This document shows positions 20,388 through 42,544 of a stretch of 42,544 nt of DNA, piece after piece. The notes beneath the pieces are model-generated. The model had not been told where the DNA came from. It made no database searches and worked only from the letters and a program-made list of their open reading frames with translations. Made by a program: the position numbers and the translations under genes. Location of the stretch: IMG/VR virus record IMGVR_UViG_2718218358_000001, positions 1-42,544 of that record; one strand, 5' to 3'. Source of the stretch: a virus (Duplodnaviria; Heunggongvirae; Uroviricota; Caudoviricetes). The stretch's first letter is position 1. Every line of letters begins with the position of its first letter.

Positions 20388-20422
20388 TGCTCAACCTGAA
20401 ATAACAACTAAGTGAGATGAAT

Positions 20423-20911
20423 ATGGCAGCACCAAAGGGCAACCGATTTTGGGAGGCCCGCAGTAGTCATGGGCGAAATCCTAAATTCGAATCGCCTGAG
20501 GCGCTGTGGGCTGCTTGTTGTGAATACTTCGAGTGGGTAGAAGCTAACCCGCTATGGGAGATGAAGGCGTTCTCGTATCAGGGTGAAGTGATACAAGAGC
20601 CTATCGCCAAGATGCGAGCGATGACTATTACAGGCCTCACTCTGTTCATTGATGTGACGCTTGAAACATGGCGCACATATCGCCTGCGAGAAGATTTATC
20701 TGAAGTCGTTACGCGAGCAGAACAGGTCATCTACGACCAGAAATTCTCTGGCGCAGCCGCTGACCTTCTCAACGCTAACATCATCGCCCGTGATTTGGGC
20801 CTCAAAGAGCAGTCGCAAGTTGAAGACGTGACACCTGATAAGGGAGATCGCGATAAGCGGCGCTCTCGTATCAAGGAGCTATTCAACCGTGGAACTGGAC
20901 GCGATTCTTGA
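20423..20911 (+). CDS. terminase small subunit (P22 gp3 type)
   Basis: [38 protein letters not shown] matches remembered P22 gp3; 162 aa from the second ATG. Confidence 0.8.
20690..20717 (+). other. candidate pac site inside the small terminase gene (GAAGATTTATCTGAAGTCGTTACGCGAG)
   Basis: matches the remembered P22 pac consensus region within gene 3. Confidence 0.5.
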
Positions 20912-22388
20912 TAACTTGAGCGACGAAGAGCAAATCGAATTGCTCGAGCTACTCGAAGAAGAAGAGAACTACCGTAACACACACCTGCTATATGAATTTA
21001 CGCCATACAGCAAACAGCGTGAGTTCATCGACGCCGGACATGACTATCCAGAGCGATGTTTTATGGCTGGTAACCAGCTTGGTAAGTCATTTACTGGTGC
21101 TGCTGAAGTCGCGTTTCACCTTACCGGGCGTTATCCGGGCACAAAAGGCTATCCTGTTGATGGTAAATATGGCGGTGAGTGGAAAGGTAAGCGTTTCTAT
21201 GAGCCTGTTGTCTTCTGGATTGGCGGCGAGACAAACGAGACTGTAACCAAAACGACTCAACGCATCCTGTGCGGTCGTATCGAAGAGAATGATGAGCCTG
21301 GCTACGGTTCCATACCGAAAGAAGACATCATTAGCTGGAAGAAGTCTCCTTTCTTTCCGAACCTTGTTGATCACCTTCTGGTTAAGCATCACACGGCTGA
21401 TGGCGTTGAAGATGGCATTTCAATCTGCTACTTCAAACCATACTCGCAAGGCCGTGCTCGCTGGCAGGGTGACACAATCCACGGCGTGTGGTTTGACGAA
21501 GAGCCACCATACAGCATTTATGGCGAAGGTCTTACCCGTACCAACAAATACGGGCAATTCTCAATTCTGACGTTTACCCCTCTGATGGGGATGTCTGACG
21601 TTGTTACCAAGTTCCTGAAGAATCCCAGCAAGTCGCAGAAAGTGGTCAACATGACCATCTATGACGCTGAGCACTACACCGACGAGCAGAAAGAGCAAAT
21701 CATCGCATCCTATCCTGAGCATGAGAGAGAGGCGCGTGCTCGCGGTATTCCTACGATGGGTAGCGGGCGAATCTTCCAGATACCGGAAGAGACGATTAAG
21801 TGTCAGCCGTTCGAGTGCCCTGATCACTTCTACGTAATTGGCGGGATGGATTTCGGATGGGATCACCCACAGGCGCAGGTTCAGCTTTGGTGGGATAAGG
21901 ACGCAGACACAATCTACGTTTCACGCGTGTGGAAGGCGAAAGAAAAAACAGCCGTTCAGGCATGGGGAGCCGTTAAATCATGGGCGCATAAAGTGCCAAC
22001 CGCATGGCCTCATGACGGAAACCAGCATGAGAAGGGCGGCGGTGAGCAGCTCAAAGGGCAGTATGCCGACGCTGGTTTTATGATGTTGCAGGAGCATGCG
22101 ACATGGCCTGATGGCGGTAACGCTGTGGAGCCTGGCATCACTGAATTGCGCGACATGATGCTCGATGGTCGCTTCAAAGTATTTAACACCTGTGAGCCAT
22201 TCTTTGAGGAGTTCCGCCTCTATCACCGTGATGAAAACGGGAAGATCGTCAAGCTTAACGACGACGTGCTATCCGCCGTTCGCTATGCATACATGATGCG
22301 CCGCTTCGCCAAAATGATGCGCGACATCAAAAAACCAAAAGAGAAAAAGATACCAGCCCCAATCAGGCCCATCGCACGGAGAACTTAA
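20889..22388 (+). CDS. terminase large subunit (P22 gp2 type)
   Basis: 499 aa; [37 protein letters not shown]; GTG start overlapping the 3' end of the small terminase gene. Confidence 0.9.
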
Positions 22389-24567: not shown

Positions 24568-25479
24568 ATGAACCCAACCACCGACATTCAGACTTCTGAA
24601 GAATTAACCCTGCCCGGCAATCATGCAGCGGCATCTGCTGATGGCTTAGTTGTCGATAATGCCAACGACAACGCAGGTCAGGAAGAAGGCTTCGAGATTG
24701 TCCTGAAAGACGATGAGAAACCAAAACAAGACCCGGCAACTAATGCTGAATTTGCCCGTCGCCGCATCGAACGCAAACGCCAGCGTGAGCTTGAGCAACA
24801 GATGGAAGCGGTTAAGCGTGGAGAGTTGCCGGAGCACCTGCGGGTGAACCCTGAGTTACCAAAACAACCAGACCCTAACGATTATCTTTCCGAAGATGCA
24901 CTGGCTAAGTACGACTATGACCAGAGCCGCGCACTGGCTGCCTTCCAGCAGGCAAACAGTGAATGGCAGATCAAGGCTATGGACGCACGAAGCCAGGCTG
25001 TCGCCGAGCAGGGTCGCAAAACTCAGGAGTTCACCCAGCAATCAGCGCAATACGTCGAGGCAGCCCGTAAGCACTACGACGCAGCGGAAAAGCTCAATAT
25101 CCCTGACTATCAGGAGAAAGAGGATGCATTCATGCAACTGGTGCCGCCAGCAGTCGGTGCCGACATCATGCGTCTCTTCCCGGAGAAATCCGCTGCTCTC
25201 ATGTATCACCTTGGTGCTAATCCTGAGAAGACACGCCAGTTGCTGGCGATGGACGGGCAATCCGCGCTGATTGAACTCACTCGACTGTCAGAACGTTTAA
25301 CTCTCAAGCCTCGAGCCAAGCCTGTTTCAGAAGCCCCGTTACCTGATGAACCCATTCAGGGACACGCTGTTGCTGCAAATATCTCTGCGATTGAAAAGCA
25401 GATGGAAGCGGCAGCAAACAAAGGGGATGTAGAGACGTACCGCAAGCTCAAGGCGCAACTGAATAAAGGAATTCGATAA
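24568..25479 (+). CDS. scaffolding protein (P22 gp8 type)
   Basis: 303 aa; helical, charged; position between portal and coat genes. Confidence 0.85.
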
Positions 25480-26001
25480 TTATTTCGATATCGTGATGTT
25501 GTTTTCCTCGTCAAACTTTCTGATTACTTCTTTCGCCTCTTCGAATGAAGAACATACTTTTTGCACTCTTGCATTAAGCAGTCGCTTATGAGCGATCCAT
25601 CTTTTCCGCGTGTTGCAAAAGTAAACTCCAGATATTCCGCTGGAGTTATTTTTAGATAGTTTGATTCTATTCCTTTGGTTTGCTGATTTTTTCACAAGAC
25701 GAAGATTTTCAATTCTGTTGTCGTGGCGAATCCCATTTATATGGTCAATTTCCATGCCTTCTGGAATATCTCCGTTAAACATTACCCATACGATGCGGTG
25801 TGCTAGCCACTTAATGCCGTTAATTCTTATGCGGATATATCCATTGCTTTCTAAAAGACCAGCAACTTTCCCAGCGTGTTTTGCATTCCAAACGTTGTGA
25901 TAGTTGCGATTCTTTTTGTTGTTGAAAAATTCAGAGCTTCTGGCTTTCCAAACCAAAGAACCATCGCGGTATTCGAAGTATTCATTCAGTTCCATGCTCA
26001 T
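25480..26001 (-). CDS. HNH homing endonuclease with AP2-type DNA-binding domain
   Basis: HNH motif EIDHINGIRHDNRIENLRLV...NQRN plus an AP2-like segment SGISGVYF...KRWIAHK; antisense to the late operon; visibly AT-rich. Confidence 0.75.
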   Translation of the reverse strand: MSMELNEYFEYRDGSLVWKARSSEFFNNKKNRNYHNVWNAKHAGKVAGLLESNGYIRIRINGIKWLAHRIVWVMFNGDIPEGMEIDHINGIRHDNRIENLRLVKKSANQRNRIKLSKNNSSGISGVYFCNTRKRWIAHKRLLNARVQKVCSSFEEAKEVIRKFDEENNITISK

Positions 26002-26068
26002 AACCCTAATGCGCTATATGTTGATATAACAATAGTATAGCACATAAAGAAAGTAAGGTATTCAATAT

Positions 26069-27364
26069 ATGACTCTCAAAGAAGGGCAGTTAGTTACTTA
26101 CGCTATCGATGAAATCATCGAAACCGTCCAGAACCTGACGCCAATGGCGTCTAAAGTGACAAAATACACCCCTCCGGCAGAATCCATGCAACGTTCAAGC
26201 AACACCGTGTGGATGCCTGTTGAGCAGGAAGCGCCAACTCAGACTGGCTGGGATTTAACTGGCAACGCTACCGGTATTCTGGAACTGTCCGTGAAATGCA
26301 ACATGGGCGATCCGGATAACGATTTCTTCGAGCTTCGTGCAGATGACCTGCGTGATGAGCGTTCTTACCGTCGCCGCATCCAGGCATCCGCTAAAAAACT
26401 GGCGAATAACATTGAGTCAGCAATTGCCAAACAGGCAACCGAAATGGGCTCACTTGTTGTTCACGATACCCGCGCAATTGGTCCATCTACTGGCCTGTCT
26501 GGCTGGGATTTTGTGTCTGATGCAGAGCGACTGATGTTCTCCCGCGAACTCAACCGAGACATGGGTATCAGTTACTTCCTGAACCCTGACGATTACCGCA
26601 AAGCAGGCCGCAATCTTGTAGATGGTGACATCTTCGGGCGCGTTCCTGAAGATGCGTATCACAACGGTACTATTCAGCGTCAGATTGCTGGCTTTGATGA
26701 AATTCTTCGCTCACCGAAACTTCCGGCAGTTACCAAGTCAACCGCTACTGGTGTAACTGTTTCTGGCGCGCAGAAGTTTAAGCCGCAGGCATACACCCTT
26801 GATACCGATGGTAACAAAGAGAACGTCGACAACCGTGTTGCAACGGTGACTGTATCCTCCACCACCGGATTTAAGCGCGGCGACAAAATCAGTTTCACTG
26901 GTGTGAAATTCCTGTCTCAGATGGCGAAGAACGTGCTGACTGATGATGCAACTTTCTCAATCACCCGTGTGATCGATAGTACTCACATCGAAATCACGCC
27001 GAAGCCGATTGCACTGGATGACGCGTCACTGACAAAAGAAGAGAAGGCTTACGCTAACGTAAACACCTCTCTTGCTGATACCACTCCGGTAAACGTTCTG
27101 AACGTGGCAACAACCACCGCTAACGTGTTCTGGGCTGATGACTCAATCCGTCTGCTGTCTCAGCCGATCCCGGTAACCCATGAGCTGTTTGCTGGCATGA
27201 AAACGTCTTCCTTCAGCATTCCTGGTATTGGTGTTAACGGCATCTTCGCAACGCAGGGTGATATCAACACTCTGTCTGGTAAGTGCCGTATTGCTGTGTG
27301 GTATTCAGCATGTGCTGTACGACCAGAGGCAATTGGTGTTGGTCTGCCTAACCAGACCGCGTGA
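26069..27364 (+). CDS. major coat protein (P22 gp5 type)
   Basis: 431 aa; [54 protein letters not shown] resembles remembered P22 coat protein. Confidence 0.9.
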
Positions 27365-27372
27365 TAACCAGA

Positions 27373-27394
27373 GGGAGCTTCGGCTCCCTTTTTT
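27373..27394 (+). terminator. rho-independent terminator immediately after the coat gene
   Basis: GGGAGC-TTCG-GCTCCC followed by TTTTTT. Confidence 0.6.
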
Positions 27395-27408
27395 ATCTGG
27401 AGACAAGC

Positions 27409-27645
27409 ATGACACACATGATCTTTCGTCATGGCGACATGAAGAAGTGGAAAGGCGTTGGCTACGACTTTGAAATCGTGAAAGCCGAAGAGCTTCAGGA
27501 ATATCTGGATGCTGGTTGGTTTTCACATCCTGATGACCTTTTGAAGGATGTTGCAGAGCCAGAGCCAGAGCCAGAAGAAAAACAGCGTAAAAAGCCTGGT
27601 CGAAAACCTAAGGCGGCAGCAGATGAACCTGACAACGAAGGGTGA
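27409..27645 (+). CDS. hypothetical protein between coat and gp4 (78 aa)
   Basis: ATG with GGAGA SD; C-terminal EPEPEPEE low-complexity tail. Confidence 0.45.
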
Positions 27646-28123
27646 TTTAGTTCTTGCGGCATTACGTAAGCTCGGTGTTGCATCAAATGCCACGTTAACC
27701 GATGTCGAACCGCAGTCTATGGAAGACGGGGTCAACGACCTTGAAATGATGATGGCTGAATGGCTTGGCGGTGATGTGTCACCTGGTATCAACGTTGGCT
27801 ACATTTTTGCTGATGCAGATGTCGCTCCAGATCCGGGCGATGAGCACGGCTTATCAAATAACGCTATAAATGCCGTCATTTTCAACCTTGCCTGCCGCAT
27901 TGCTCCAGATTATGCGCTGGAAGCGTCTGCAAAACTTATAACCACTGCCAGATACGGGAAAGAGCGACTCGTCAAACTGTCTGCAATGGACAGAGCAAAA
28001 GCTGCTAAATGTAAGTCCGGTTATCCAAACCGTATGCCTGTTGGTAGCGGTAATCAGTTGGCGAAGTGGAACGGTTGGAATTACTTCCACCGGAAGGAAC
28101 CTTGCGATAACGGGAGCGAATAA
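27623..28123 (+). CDS. head completion / portal-plug protein (P22 gp4 type)
   Basis: [43 protein letters not shown] resembles remembered P22 gp4; 166 aa from the ATG at 27623. Confidence 0.8.
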
Positions 28124-40142: not shown

Positions 40143-41300
40143 TCACTCCGCCTTTTCATCAATCCAATCCGCCCACCACTGCATCATTTCTCTGCGCTTA
40201 TCGAGATACTGAGCATGGTTGTAAACCCCGCGCACAGATCCGCCATTGGCATGTGCCAGTTGCACTTCAATAGCGTCAGCAGGCCATTCGTGCTCGTTCA
40301 TAATCGTGCTGAATTCATGCCTGAATCCGTGACCGCTTTCCAGCCCCTCATAGCCGATTTGTTTGATCACAAGTAGCACCGCGTTCTCGCAGATTGGCTT
40401 CTTCTTATCGTTGCGTCCGGCAAAAACAAACTCTGATACCGGTTTAGTGATTGAGCTTAGCGTAGTGAGAAGTTCAATAACCTGGTCCGACATAGGAACC
40501 ACATGAATCTTGCGTCCTTTCATCACACTGGCGTCGATGGTGATAATCCTGTTTTCAAAATCGACGTTCTTCCATAGCATGGAACGAAGCTCTTTCGTTC
40601 TTATGGCTGTGTAGCGTAAAATTTTGGTCGCAATGAGCGATACGATACTTCCTGAAAATGTTGCCAGTGCTTTGTTGAATGCCGGGATCTGGTCTGCAGG
40701 AAGAAACGGGAAGTTCTTCTTGCGGTATCCCTTCATGGCGTCAGCAAGGTCAGGTGCCGGGTTATATTTAGCCCTTCCGGTGACAATAGCGTAACGGAAA
40801 ACCTCGCCGCATCTTCTGCGTGCTTTGTTGGCTCGTTCCATTGCACCGCGATCTTCAAACCTGCGGATTACTTCCAGCAGTTGCATCGGCTCAATATCCT
40901 GAATTTCAAGGCCGCCAATGATAGGTAAAATGTCGTCGTCAAACATTTTGGCAAGTTCAGTTGCATACCCTACTGACCATACTTGCTTCTTGTGCTCGTA
41001 CCATTCCTTGTAAATCGCACTAAATGAATTGTTGTTAGACGAAGCCTTTTTCGCCTTTACCGGATCGATGCCAACCGAGATGTCTTTCCTCGCAGTCCAT
41101 GCCTTATCCCTTGCTTCCTGCAAAGTCATAAGCGGATATTTTCCGACGGTCAGGATTTTCTCCTTACCGTCAATCTTGTAGCGAAGCTGCCATACCTTTT
41201 TCCCTGACACAGGGACATAAAGGTACAGGCCATTACCATCGAGAAGGCGGTATGGTTTTTCTTTCGGCTTTGCTGCTTCAATCTGCTTAACGGTGAGCAT
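40143..41300 (-). CDS. intS: tyrosine integrase, IntS type
   Basis: 385 aa from the ATG at 41300 (track start at 41336 is a GTG without SD); recognised as the argW-prophage integrase; C-terminal catalytic region with HGFRHEFST and Tyr. Confidence 0.9.
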   Translation of the reverse strand: MLTVKQIEAAKPKEKPYRLLDGNGLYLYVPVSGKKVWQLRYKIDGKEKILTVGKYPLMTLQEARDKAWTARKDISVGIDPVKAKKASSNNNSFSAIYKEWYEHKKQVWSVGYATELAKMFDDDILPIIGGLEIQDIEPMQLLEVIRRFEDRGAMERANKARRRCGEVFRYAIVTGRAKYNPAPDLADAMKGYRKKNFPFLPADQIPAFNKALATFSGSIVSLIATKILRYTAIRTKELRSMLWKNVDFENRIITIDASVMKGRKIHVVPMSDQVIELLTTLSSITKPVSEFVFAGRNDKKKPICENAVLLVIKQIGYEGLESGHGFRHEFSTIMNEHEWPADAIEVQLAHANGGSVRGVYNHAQYLDKRREMMQWWADWIDEKAE

Positions 41301-41461
41301 GGGTAAAAATCCGGTGGGTAAAATTATTTTATCCACTTTTTACCCGTCATGGAGTGCGGCTGTCAACGATCTGAAGCGAACCATGACGAACTGTGAATCT
41401 ACGGAAGGCTTGATATTCAGGGGATTTTGCGGACTGGTACGGATGGGAGCGAACTGATAAA

Positions 41462-41476
41462 TGGTGTCCCCTGCAG
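41462..41476. repeat. att core copy at the intS-proximal junction, inside the argW 3' end
   Basis: exact match to 1690..1704. Confidence 0.7.
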
Positions 41477-41536
41477 GAATCGAACCTGCAATTAGCCCTT
41501 AGGAGGGGCTCGTTATATCCATTTAACTAAGAGGAC
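41462..41536 (-). tRNA. argW: tRNA-Arg (anticodon CCU), argW
   Basis: minus strand reads GTCCTCTTAGTTAAATGGATATAACGAGCCCCTCCTAAGGGCTAATTGCAGGTTCGATTCCTGCAGGGGACACCA; cloverleaf with T-loop GGTTCGATTCC and terminal CCA. Confidence 0.85.
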
Positions 41537-41611: not shown

Positions 41612-42544
41612 TTATGCCGGGTTTTTATCATTTTTCTTAATGTTTTCCGCACGTTCTGCTTTTTGGCGTGCTTCTGCTTTACGCTTGTTGCTCATGTCGT
41701 TACGAATCTGTGCATGACTCATTAACGCGAAGATAAAGGTGCCGCCGCAGATGTTCCCCGCTAAAGTAGGTAGTGCGAAGGGCCAGATGAAATCGCTCCA
41801 GTGCAGCGTACCGTTAAACACCAGATAGAGGATTTCAACAGAACCGACAACGATGTGGGTGGTGTCACCCAGGGCAATAAGCCAGGTCATCAATATAATC
41901 ACCACAATCTTTGCCGCACCCGCTGCAGGAAACATCCATACCATAGTGGCGATCAGCCAGCCGGAAATGATCGCGTTGGCAAACATCTCGCTGGGGGTGT
42001 TTTTCATCACATCCATGCCGATTTTGACAAATGCATCGCGAGTTTCTTCATTGAAGATAGGCATATATTCAAATGCCCACGCAGCAATACCAGTCCCGAG
42101 AATATTACCCAGCAGCACGACTCCCCATAACCGCATAAGTAAGCCAACGTTGCTCATTGTCGGTTTTTGCATGACGGGTAGTACCGCAGTCACGGTGTTT
42201 TCGGTAAATAATTGCTGGCGGGCCATTATGACGATAATAAAACCAAAGGTATAACCGAGATTCTCCAGCAAGAAGCTGCCCGGCACGCCTTCCAGTTCGA
42301 CATGAAATATCCCTTTTGCCAGTAGCGAAGCGCCCATCGACAGACCCGCCGCAATGGCTGACCACAGTAGCGCCATTGCGTCGCGTTCCAGCTCTTTTTC
42401 ACCATCCTGGCGGATATGCTCATGAATTGCCATCGCCCGGGAGGGGAGTCGGTCTTCATCTATTTCTATTTTTTTGCCGCGCTCTTTTTCTTCGCTCTCA
42501 ACTTCAATTTCGTCGCTGTGTTGATCAATTTTGTCGTTGTCCAT
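41612..42544 (-). CDS. yfdC: inner-membrane protein YfdC (formate/nitrite transporter family)
   Basis: 310-aa ORF ending at the window edge; multiple TM segments; recognised as the gene adjacent to argW in E. coli. Confidence 0.85.
   Translation of the reverse strand: MDNDKIDQHSDEIEVESEEKERGKKIEIDEDRLPSRAMAIHEHIRQDGEKELERDAMALLWSAIAAGLSMGASLLAKGIFHVELEGVPGSFLLENLGYTFGFIIVIMARQQLFTENTVTAVLPVMQKPTMSNVGLLMRLWGVVLLGNILGTGIAAWAFEYMPIFNEETRDAFVKIGMDVMKNTPSEMFANAIISGWLIATMVWMFPAAGAAKIVVIILMTWLIALGDTTHIVVGSVEILYLVFNGTLHWSDFIWPFALPTLAGNICGGTFIFALMSHAQIRNDMSNKRKAEARQKAERAENIKKNDKNPA

Follow-up and report, generated by a model that had tools for sequence, protein, structure and literature searches.

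In the 42,544-nucleotide (nt) DNA of IMG/VR record IMGVR_UViG_2718218358_000001, from a virus of the Caudoviricetes (this whole stretch is referred to below as the window), a segment carrying an antisense gene for an HNH-AP2 endonuclease is inserted between P22-type scaffolding protein (scaffold) and major coat protein genes. Comparison with related phages and prophages suggests, with a probability that we put at roughly 78%, that this insert is a homing endonuclease gene (HEG) which is, or has recently been, active. A preliminary description of this DNA, made from the sequence by itself, had proposed a free-standing homing endonuclease, and that reading is supported here by the occupation of the same slot in five lineages, by an HEG-linked variant tract at the 5' end of the coat gene, and by the admixed backbones on which the insert is found. 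With rather less confidence, the target of the endonuclease is predicted to lie within approximately nt 4–40 of the coat gene.

Boundaries and composition of the insert

The window represents an integrated prophage, bounded on either side by chromosomal transporter genes and carrying an integrase gene and a tRNA-Arg(CCT) gene at one end. The portal gene is located upstream of the scaffold gene, and the features of the scaffold/coat junction are as follows (ORF, open reading frame).

24568–25479, plus strand: P22-type scaffolding protein gene, the left flank, whose TAA forms the left insertion boundary (Pfam Phage-scaffold, E = 6e-180)
25480–26001, minus strand: HNH-AP2 endonuclease ORF, 173 amino acids, with HNH_3 and PHROG 99 matches (the alternative RefSeq start is Met3, at 25995)
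25504–25641, minus strand: predicted AP2-like DNA-binding module, residues ~121–166 (sub-threshold Pfam match, homologues and structural matches)
25672–25806, minus strand: HNH_3 catalytic domain (beta-beta-alpha-metal), residues 66–110 (Pfam envelope and structural model)
26002–26068, no strand assigned: 67-nt AT-rich spacer, part of the insert, with a putative HNH promoter (minus strand) and a coat ribosome-binding site (plus strand); 60–72 nt long in all five HEG-bearing lineages
26034–26042, minus strand: putative extended –10 element TGCTATACT for the HNH gene (found by eye and compared across lineages)
26055–26058, plus strand: AAGG Shine-Dalgarno sequence, 10 nt before the coat ATG (read from the sequence)
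26069–27364, plus strand: P22-type major coat protein gene, the right flank (Pfam P22_CoatProtein, E = 6.5e-163)
26072–26107, plus strand: HEG-linked variant tract, coat nt 4–39, the predicted target/immunity region (14 substitutions relative to insert-free relatives)

The phages IME10, APC_JM3.2, Bas106 and HZ41 are ~97% identical to the window from scaffold to coat, and align with it in two pieces, without an intervening 590 base pairs (bp). The span that is extra in the window is exactly 25480–26068 (589/590 bp, one A being ambiguous), comprising the ORF and the 67-nt spacer, and the proposed insertion is thereby borne out. The same gene is present in phages Dewey and Louie, which are 98.4–98.5% identical to the window from scaffold to coat. 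In the insert-free phages the scaffold TAA and the coat ATG overlap as TAATG, and this overlap was found in all ~170 insert-free loci with a locatable junction in a set of 213 loci. P22 itself joins its scaffold and coat genes by the same TAATG, in line with the earlier statement that the two genes are directly adjacent in that phage.

The scaffold stop codon TAA (25477–25479) directly meets the stop codon of the HNH gene (TTA on the plus strand, 25480–25482), giving the tail-to-tail abutment that had been described. The GC content is 0.389 in the HNH ORF and 0.284 in the spacer, compared to 0.529 in the scaffold gene and 0.505 in the coat gene; the AT-rich stretch of ~590 bp noted at the outset is thus real (0.39 and 0.28 against ~0.52 in the flanks), and the insert is compositionally foreign. 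A group I intron was considered as an alternative identity and rejected, as the ORFs on either side of the insert, scaffold and coat, are both complete and the insert has no Rfam match. The Rfam scan, covering positions 25200–26400, returned no RNA family, intron or other, apart from one chance match to a small nucleolar RNA (E = 0.73).

The insert encodes an HNH-AP2 endonuclease

The 173-residue minus-strand ORF carries the HNH motif EIDHINGIRHDNRIENL...NQRN, as had been read from the sequence. A profile search for the HNH domain had been named beforehand as a check that could overturn this assignment, and the domain was found: the ORF matches Pfam HNH_3 (PF13392) with 78 bits against a cut-off of 24.8 (E = 3.9e-22), and PHROG 99, 'HNH endonuclease', with E = 1e-50. 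HNH_3 was found in all of the 72 aligned homologues, and the catalytic residues D86, H87, N99 and N108, which show no variation in this alignment, align with the DH...NL...N of the homing endonuclease I-HmuI. The AlphaFold2 model of the protein (mean predicted local distance difference test score 89.7) contains a predicted beta-beta-alpha core with strands at residues 83–87 and 100–104 and a helix at 105–111, and a Foldseek search with the whole model ranked I-HmuI (1u3e) first, with a probability of 1.00.

The AP2-like segment of the preliminary description stood up by homology and fold, although not by its own Pfam score. The C-terminal fragment scored 17.4 bits against Pfam AP2 (PF00847), under the cut-off of 33.3 (E = 0.0055, profile positions 1–20 only), while 31 of the 72 aligned homologues match AP2, the best with E = 1.4e-11. 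In the AlphaFold2 model the C-terminal module consists of strands at residues 126–129, 134–140 and 145–150 followed by a helix at 153–166, and Foldseek pairs it with the AP2 domains of Plasmodium 3igm (probability 0.92) and 6sy0 (root mean square deviation 2.1–2.2 Å, 48 columns) and also with that of Arabidopsis WRI1 (7wq5). Given the AP2-matching homologues, the model and the invariant active site, the label HNH-AP2 is sound, with an AP2 module that has diverged.

GenBank and RefSeq annotate the gene as 'HNH endonuclease' and nothing further. Membership of the gene in a defence system was considered and rejected, since a PADLOC scan matched the ORF to generic 'homing endonuclease' models only and NCBIfam gave no match. 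Where the AP2-like module begins, the ORF contains a perfect palindrome (25624–25647) with an 8-bp stem and a T-run after it, which resembles a terminator on either strand; a weak terminator-like hairpin also occurs on the minus strand at 25248–25234. Neither hairpin was judged informative.

Diverged relatives occupy the same slot

Homologues at 82%, 74% and 59% identity, all from metagenomic contigs, are the only ones found between 50% and 99% identity, and each lies antisense between P22-type scaffold and coat genes. A more distant gene, at 2437–2973 of IMGVR_UViG_3300038809_000005 (L158), encodes a 178-residue HNH-AP2-like protein of the same layout that is 43% identical to the window protein, and it too is antisense in the same slot. 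The contig with the 74% homologue (L011) and L158 have scaffold proteins that are 98% identical, with a synonymous divergence (pS) of 0.11, and yet their HNH genes differ, which indicates that the occupant of the slot has been exchanged. Outside the slot, the closest relatives are endonucleases from T1-like phages and other phages of enterobacteria, with no more than 49% identity, and no relative above 49% identity was found in GTDB species-representative genomes.

The contig of the 59% lineage (L017) shows two local peculiarities. An inverted repeat, CAGGGGC-GGTAA-GCCCCTG, extends across the scaffold stop (~1276–1304, reverse-complement, in scaffold-to-coat coordinates), and the two stop codons are separated by an 11-nt gap and do not abut directly.

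A coat-gene tract is linked to the insert

Compared to all four insert-free phages, the window has 14 differences in coat nt 4–39 and the next at nt 84, on a background divergence of ~2.7% and with no cluster of differences on the scaffold side. Nine of the 14 substitutions fall in synonymous codons, and the remaining five produce the replacements A2T, N4K and L13I.

The association with the insert was examined in 86 unique window-type haplotypes, of which 15 carry the insert and 71 lack it. The 14 positions are fixed or nearly fixed between the two classes, whereas neither the scaffold gene nor coat nt 60–1296 has any fixed difference. Mean distances within and between the insert-bearing and insert-free classes are the same, and in every flanking segment 7–12 of the 15 insert-bearing haplotypes have an insert-free one as their nearest neighbour. 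The nucleotide diversity (pi) of the insert is 0.004, 2.5–5-fold below that of the flanks (0.010 and 0.020). The fixed tract, the admixed backbones and the low diversity of the insert together indicate that the insert plus 39 nt of the coat gene behaves as one unit on many backbones.

A comparable tract is seen in the most distant lineage. The coat genes of L158 and its empty relative L159 differ at 18 of 861 positions, of which seven (nt 6, 9, 12, 18, 21, 27 and 30) are all synonymous and are followed by the next difference at nt 207; all seven changes also belong to the window-type set. At codons 5–7 of the coat gene, each of the seven distinct HEG-bearing alleles reads GAAGG(G/A)CAG, compared to GAAGG(T/C)CAA in 23 of the 25 distinct empty alleles, the other two being that of L309 (GAAGGTCAG) and the ECONIH6-type patch allele (GAAGGGCAG). 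The HEG-type reading thus occurs in 1 of 25 empty alleles (Fisher p = 2e-6, phylogeny not corrected for). Beyond codon 7, the coat sequence of each lineage accords with its own protein, so that the import of a single common tract does not by itself account for the shared changes. The coat start of the window, ATGACTCTCAAA (MTLK), is native to the backbone type of the loci L016 and L192, which is consistent with import of donor flank sequence.

The patch allele is carried by eight insert-free E. coli genomes (ECONIH6, locus L007, positions 1600–1640, and seven others), which have insert-type sequence at coat nt 12–39 and are canonical at nt 4–9 and again by nt 84. Because its left switch falls within only 2 nt of shared sequence, it is not the product of an ordinary homologous crossover. 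The patch allele is conversion-like, in the absence of the gene, and is predicted to be resistant to the endonuclease. Taken as a whole, the pattern of the variant tract fits an immunity of carriers to self-cleavage.

Adaptation of mRNA structure to a new ribosome-binding site was also considered as a cause of the coat 5' variants. Folding energies were –10.7 and –8.1 kcal/mol, with no significant structure, and the nt 12–39 tract also occurs in empty, TAATG-coupled sites, so that this explanation is not supported. As a separate observation, the empty-junction RNA of IME10 (L002, 2373–2453) is less stable than 199 of 200 dinucleotide shuffles (z = +2.1), which fits an unstructured translation-coupling region, and the insert-bearing junction is average (z = –0.7).

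Distribution and selection

In a survey of 5,426 complete E. coli genomes, this scaffold/coat junction was present in 216, of which 19 carry the insert (99.0–99.7% identity) and 197 do not. A further 11 loci with 99–100% identical protein were found in IMG/VR. Universal presence of the gene among relatives, with matching GC content, had been put forward as evidence that would speak against an invasion; the insert is instead sporadic (19/216) and deviates in GC content.

All of the 29 fetched gene copies are intact, with just three single-residue variants among them. One N-terminally truncated form of 102 amino acids (P0005), encoded in one E. coli chromosome or more, may represent a copy in the process of degeneration. 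Between the window HNH gene and its 82%-identical homologue, nonsynonymous divergence (pN) is 0.10 and pS is 0.69, a ratio (dN/dS) of ~0.06. By this comparison the gene is under purifying selection, and its protein appears to have stayed functional while the gene diverged as deeply as the coat gene did.

The window prophage has a single HNH gene: no second copy was found in the window, where the other large ORFs are not HNH genes. Dewey (L348, PQ850600.1), by comparison, has six annotated HNH endonuclease genes, among which the scaffold/coat one alone is antisense to its operon.

Predicted expression signals in the spacer

Lying antisense to the late operon, the HNH gene requires a promoter of its own. 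It may be active in the lysogen or early in infection, or late transcription may silence it. A TGnTA(T/A)A(A/C)T motif is found in all five spacers on the HNH-sense strand, 30–45 nt upstream of the start, and reads as the putative extended –10 element TGCTATACT in the window and L011, TGCTATAAT in L016, TGTATAAT in L017 and TGATAAAAT in L158; in L017, TTGCAT lies 17 nt upstream of it. Conservation of this candidate element in the five lineages hints at a dedicated promoter for the host RNA polymerase.

On the other strand, the Shine-Dalgarno sequence AAGG of the window has an equivalent (AAGG, TAGG or AGGA) in the spacer of every HEG-bearing lineage. In empty sites, AAAGGA inside the scaffold 3' end serves as the Shine-Dalgarno sequence. 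Judged by these sequences, the Shine-Dalgarno sequence of the spacer is the replacement for the TAATG translational coupling that the insertion has broken. The right end of the spacer, AAGGTATTCAATAT before the ATG, matches the scaffold 3' end, AAGGAATTCGATA before the ATG, at 14 of 17 positions; an origin of the spacer end as a duplicated scaffold 3' end is unproven, because the spacer end of L017 is unlike its own scaffold end.

Proposed mechanism and alternative explanations

We hypothesize that the insert is a mobile cassette in which an I-HmuI-like HNH nuclease with an AP2-type module is combined with an upstream spacer holding a likely host-type promoter and with a portable Shine-Dalgarno sequence by which translation of the coat gene would be restored. 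The whole is placed exactly at the TAA/ATG overlap of the scaffold and coat genes. Homing would take place where insert-bearing and insert-free P22-like genomes meet in one cell, by analogy with intronless homing in T-even phages. The enzyme would nick or cut the insert-free genome at the start of the coat gene (first ~30–40 bp), in the region of the conserved ...GAAGGTCAA... motif, and recombinational repair on the insert-bearing template would copy in the cassette together with coat nt 4–39. Insert-bearing genomes would be spared self-cleavage by the mostly synonymous substitutions of the tract and by the splitting of the junction through the insertion.

Several points weigh against this explanation. 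The low diversity of the insert and its admixed flanks would also be expected from one ancient insertion followed by ordinary recombination in the flanks, and the 39% divergence of coat nt 4–39 would suppress crossovers, so that the tract would stay linked to the insert in any case. The tract includes three amino-acid changes and resembles the native allele of another lineage, and may therefore be a hitch-hiking donor flank and not selected immunity. The HEG loci from IMG/VR and E. coli were de-duplicated by haplotype only, and may be partly redundant. A scan of the minus strand of the spacer for consensus –35/–10 (sigma-70) elements gave no promoter for the HNH gene. Finally, the characterized free-standing endonucleases of T4 usually cut hundreds of bp from their own genes, and a distance of less than 40 bp is atypical (PMC2988022).

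The observations on diversity, mixed flanks and a heterologous tract in which crossovers cannot occur are those that would be made if the insert were a passive passenger, which entered once by illegitimate recombination and has since passed on by vertical descent and ordinary recombination, with no site-specific homing today. We consider this unlikely. A non-functional nuclease gene should decay, and yet this one has a dN/dS of ~0.06, an invariant active site and 29 intact copies out of 29; five lineages, down to 43% identity, share the slot and the orientation, and near-identical backbones have different occupants. The seven purely synonymous changes at nt 6–30 in the second lineage, with none over the next 177 nt, are difficult to account for unless the DNA sequence itself was under selection. 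If the ORF were instead the dead remnant of a former endonuclease, the truncated P0005 in the protein database and an AP2 module too diverged for the Pfam threshold might be taken as signs of decay, but a full-length ORF with every catalytic residue, a confident fold prediction, strong purifying selection and three single-residue variants among 29 copies make a decaying relic most improbable.

A function that benefits the carrier has to be weighed as well. The endonuclease may serve in competition or exclusion, being expressed from the prophage to damage insert-free P22-like superinfectors or co-residents for the advantage of the carrier phage or lysogen. That the window is an integrated prophage agrees with this, as does the long-term purifying selection; the antisense orientation and the candidate extended –10 element in all lineages make expression independent of late transcription plausible, and with GAAGGTCAA present in P22 and nearly all empty alleles, many competitors would be targets. 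Exclusion is, however, compatible with homing, a carriage of ~9% among prophages is low for a strongly beneficial trait, and PADLOC points to the homing-endonuclease class alone, so that we give it a low probability as the explanation for the insert. An accessory role in morphogenesis or packaging, as a domesticated head-assembly or terminase helper resembling the terminase-adjacent HNH proteins of HK97-like cos phages, would suit a gene within the head-gene block. Such a role is very hard to reconcile with the absence of the gene from ~90% of otherwise 97–99% identical phages and prophages, including the viable IME10 and Bas106, with its antisense orientation to the operon, or with an HNH_3 and AP2 family of the homing type. 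The terminase genes (20417–22388) are, moreover, ~3 kb upstream and not adjacent, and the small terminase is of the P22 gp3 family (GP3_package). Terminases of the P22 gp3 type package DNA by a headful mechanism.

The homing explanation can be extended, more speculatively, to a conflict at the start of the coat gene. It is conceivable, although we would not expect it, that at least two distant HNH-AP2 lineages (43% identity) compete for one ~30-bp target at the coat start, giving rise to immunized and patch alleles and to imported changes in the coat N-arm, with the enzyme being expressed from its own promoter in the lysogen and acting also as an exclusion weapon. The changes A2T, N4K and L13I adjoin residue D14 of the coat protein, which we take to contact the scaffolding protein in P22. 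If this extension were true, an arms race would be visible in natural prophage populations, in the form of synonymous 'immunized' coat alleles and resistant insert-free patch alleles, and exclusion would reach P22 itself, which carries the candidate motif.

Relation to known systems

The closest solved relative of the window protein, by sequence (E = 8e-4) as well as by fold, is I-HmuI of the Bacillus phage SPO1 (174 compared to 173 amino acids). In both proteins an N-terminal region rich in beta structure precedes the HNH core, which has a D-H...N...N active site, and their identity is ~23%. I-HmuI is encoded by an intron in a DNA polymerase gene, nicks one strand and has a helix-turn-helix end. 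The window protein, unlike I-HmuI, is free-standing between two genes and has a C-terminal AP2-like beta-beta-beta-alpha module.

Intronless homing with co-conversion has been described in T-even phages for SegF, SegG and MobE (PMC2988022; MobE, PMC2790892), and MobE of T4 is likewise an HNH enzyme. The window gene resembles the free-standing endonuclease genes of T4 in its position between conserved genes and in its presence or absence among relatives, and the indirect population signatures here would fit a co-conversion of flanking markers such as is seen with those genes. Cleavage by the T4 enzymes takes place hundreds to thousands of bp from their own gene, whereas the linked tract here lies within 40 bp of the insertion, as is the case for intron-encoded enzymes. 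The T4 systems also belong to virulent T-even phages, while the host here is a temperate P22-like prophage with the gene antisense to the operon.

HNH endonucleases with an AP2 module form a recognized homing class, the genes of which cluster beside capsid and other essential genes (PMC10448857). The IPA-HNH genes of ICP1-like phages (PMC10448857) and the HNN-AP2 genes of Xanthomonas oryzae phages (PMC2248197) have the same layout, with an N-terminal HNH and a C-terminal AP2 part; they are free-standing, often several per genome, and enriched near essential and structural genes. Both families are known from virulent phages and from loci other than this one, and the AP2 module of the window protein is sub-threshold by profile search. 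Nearest outside the slot-specific lineage are the HNH endonucleases of T1, Rtp, DTL, KLPN1 and other phages, with 38–49% identity over 80–98% of the protein. These endonucleases of T1-like and further enterobacterial siphophages have the same architecture, and short stretches of their DNA are 70–84% identical to the window gene, but the genes lie in other contexts, for example beside head-morphogenesis or recombination genes.

Sporadic putative HNH homing genes are known from temperate P22-like phages at other positions, namely the gene 31 fusion of epsilon34 (PMC2629481) and the insertion between terminase and portal genes in SEN22 (PMC5261728). The gene of epsilon34 is a member of a different family, with homology to endonucleases from phages that infect Gram-positive bacteria, and no target-site signature has been described for epsilon34 or SEN22. 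In the open-access literature we found no description of an HNH gene at a P22-type scaffold/coat junction, nor of a target signature of this lineage, and the genome announcement of Dewey and Louie is silent on the gene. The junction-specific lineage thus joins the known HNH-AP2 homing class, its distinctive features being a clear signature in natural populations and the availability of cultured partner phages.

If the homing explanation holds, the junction would provide a compact natural system for the study of intronless homing in a temperate phage. Comparison alone has narrowed the predicted target to ~30 bp, natural alleles are predicted to be resistant, and two endonuclease lineages occur at one site. 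Cultured partners with the same host are at hand, Dewey and Louie with the insert and Bas106 without. The insert would also exemplify a selfish element that resides inside a head-gene block at little apparent cost, owing to an insertion point exactly on the stop/start overlap and to the ribosome-binding site that it brings along for the essential coat gene. For the engineering of P22-like phages or the use of their capsids, the predicted site-specific nuclease and recombination hotspot deserve attention.

Other features of the window

The chromosomal flanks of the prophage comprise a LacY-type symporter gene (1–1248) and a gene of the formate/nitrite-transporter family (41612–42544), and the integrase gene (40143–41336, minus strand) adjoins the tRNA-Arg(CCT) gene (41462–41536). 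Downstream of the coat gene, a 94-residue ORF (27361–27645), for which no Pfam or NCBIfam family was matched, lies between coat and gp4 (27548–28123, P22_Tail-4). The colinearity of the window with Dewey and Louie ends at ~27576, and this region looks like a second variable slot.

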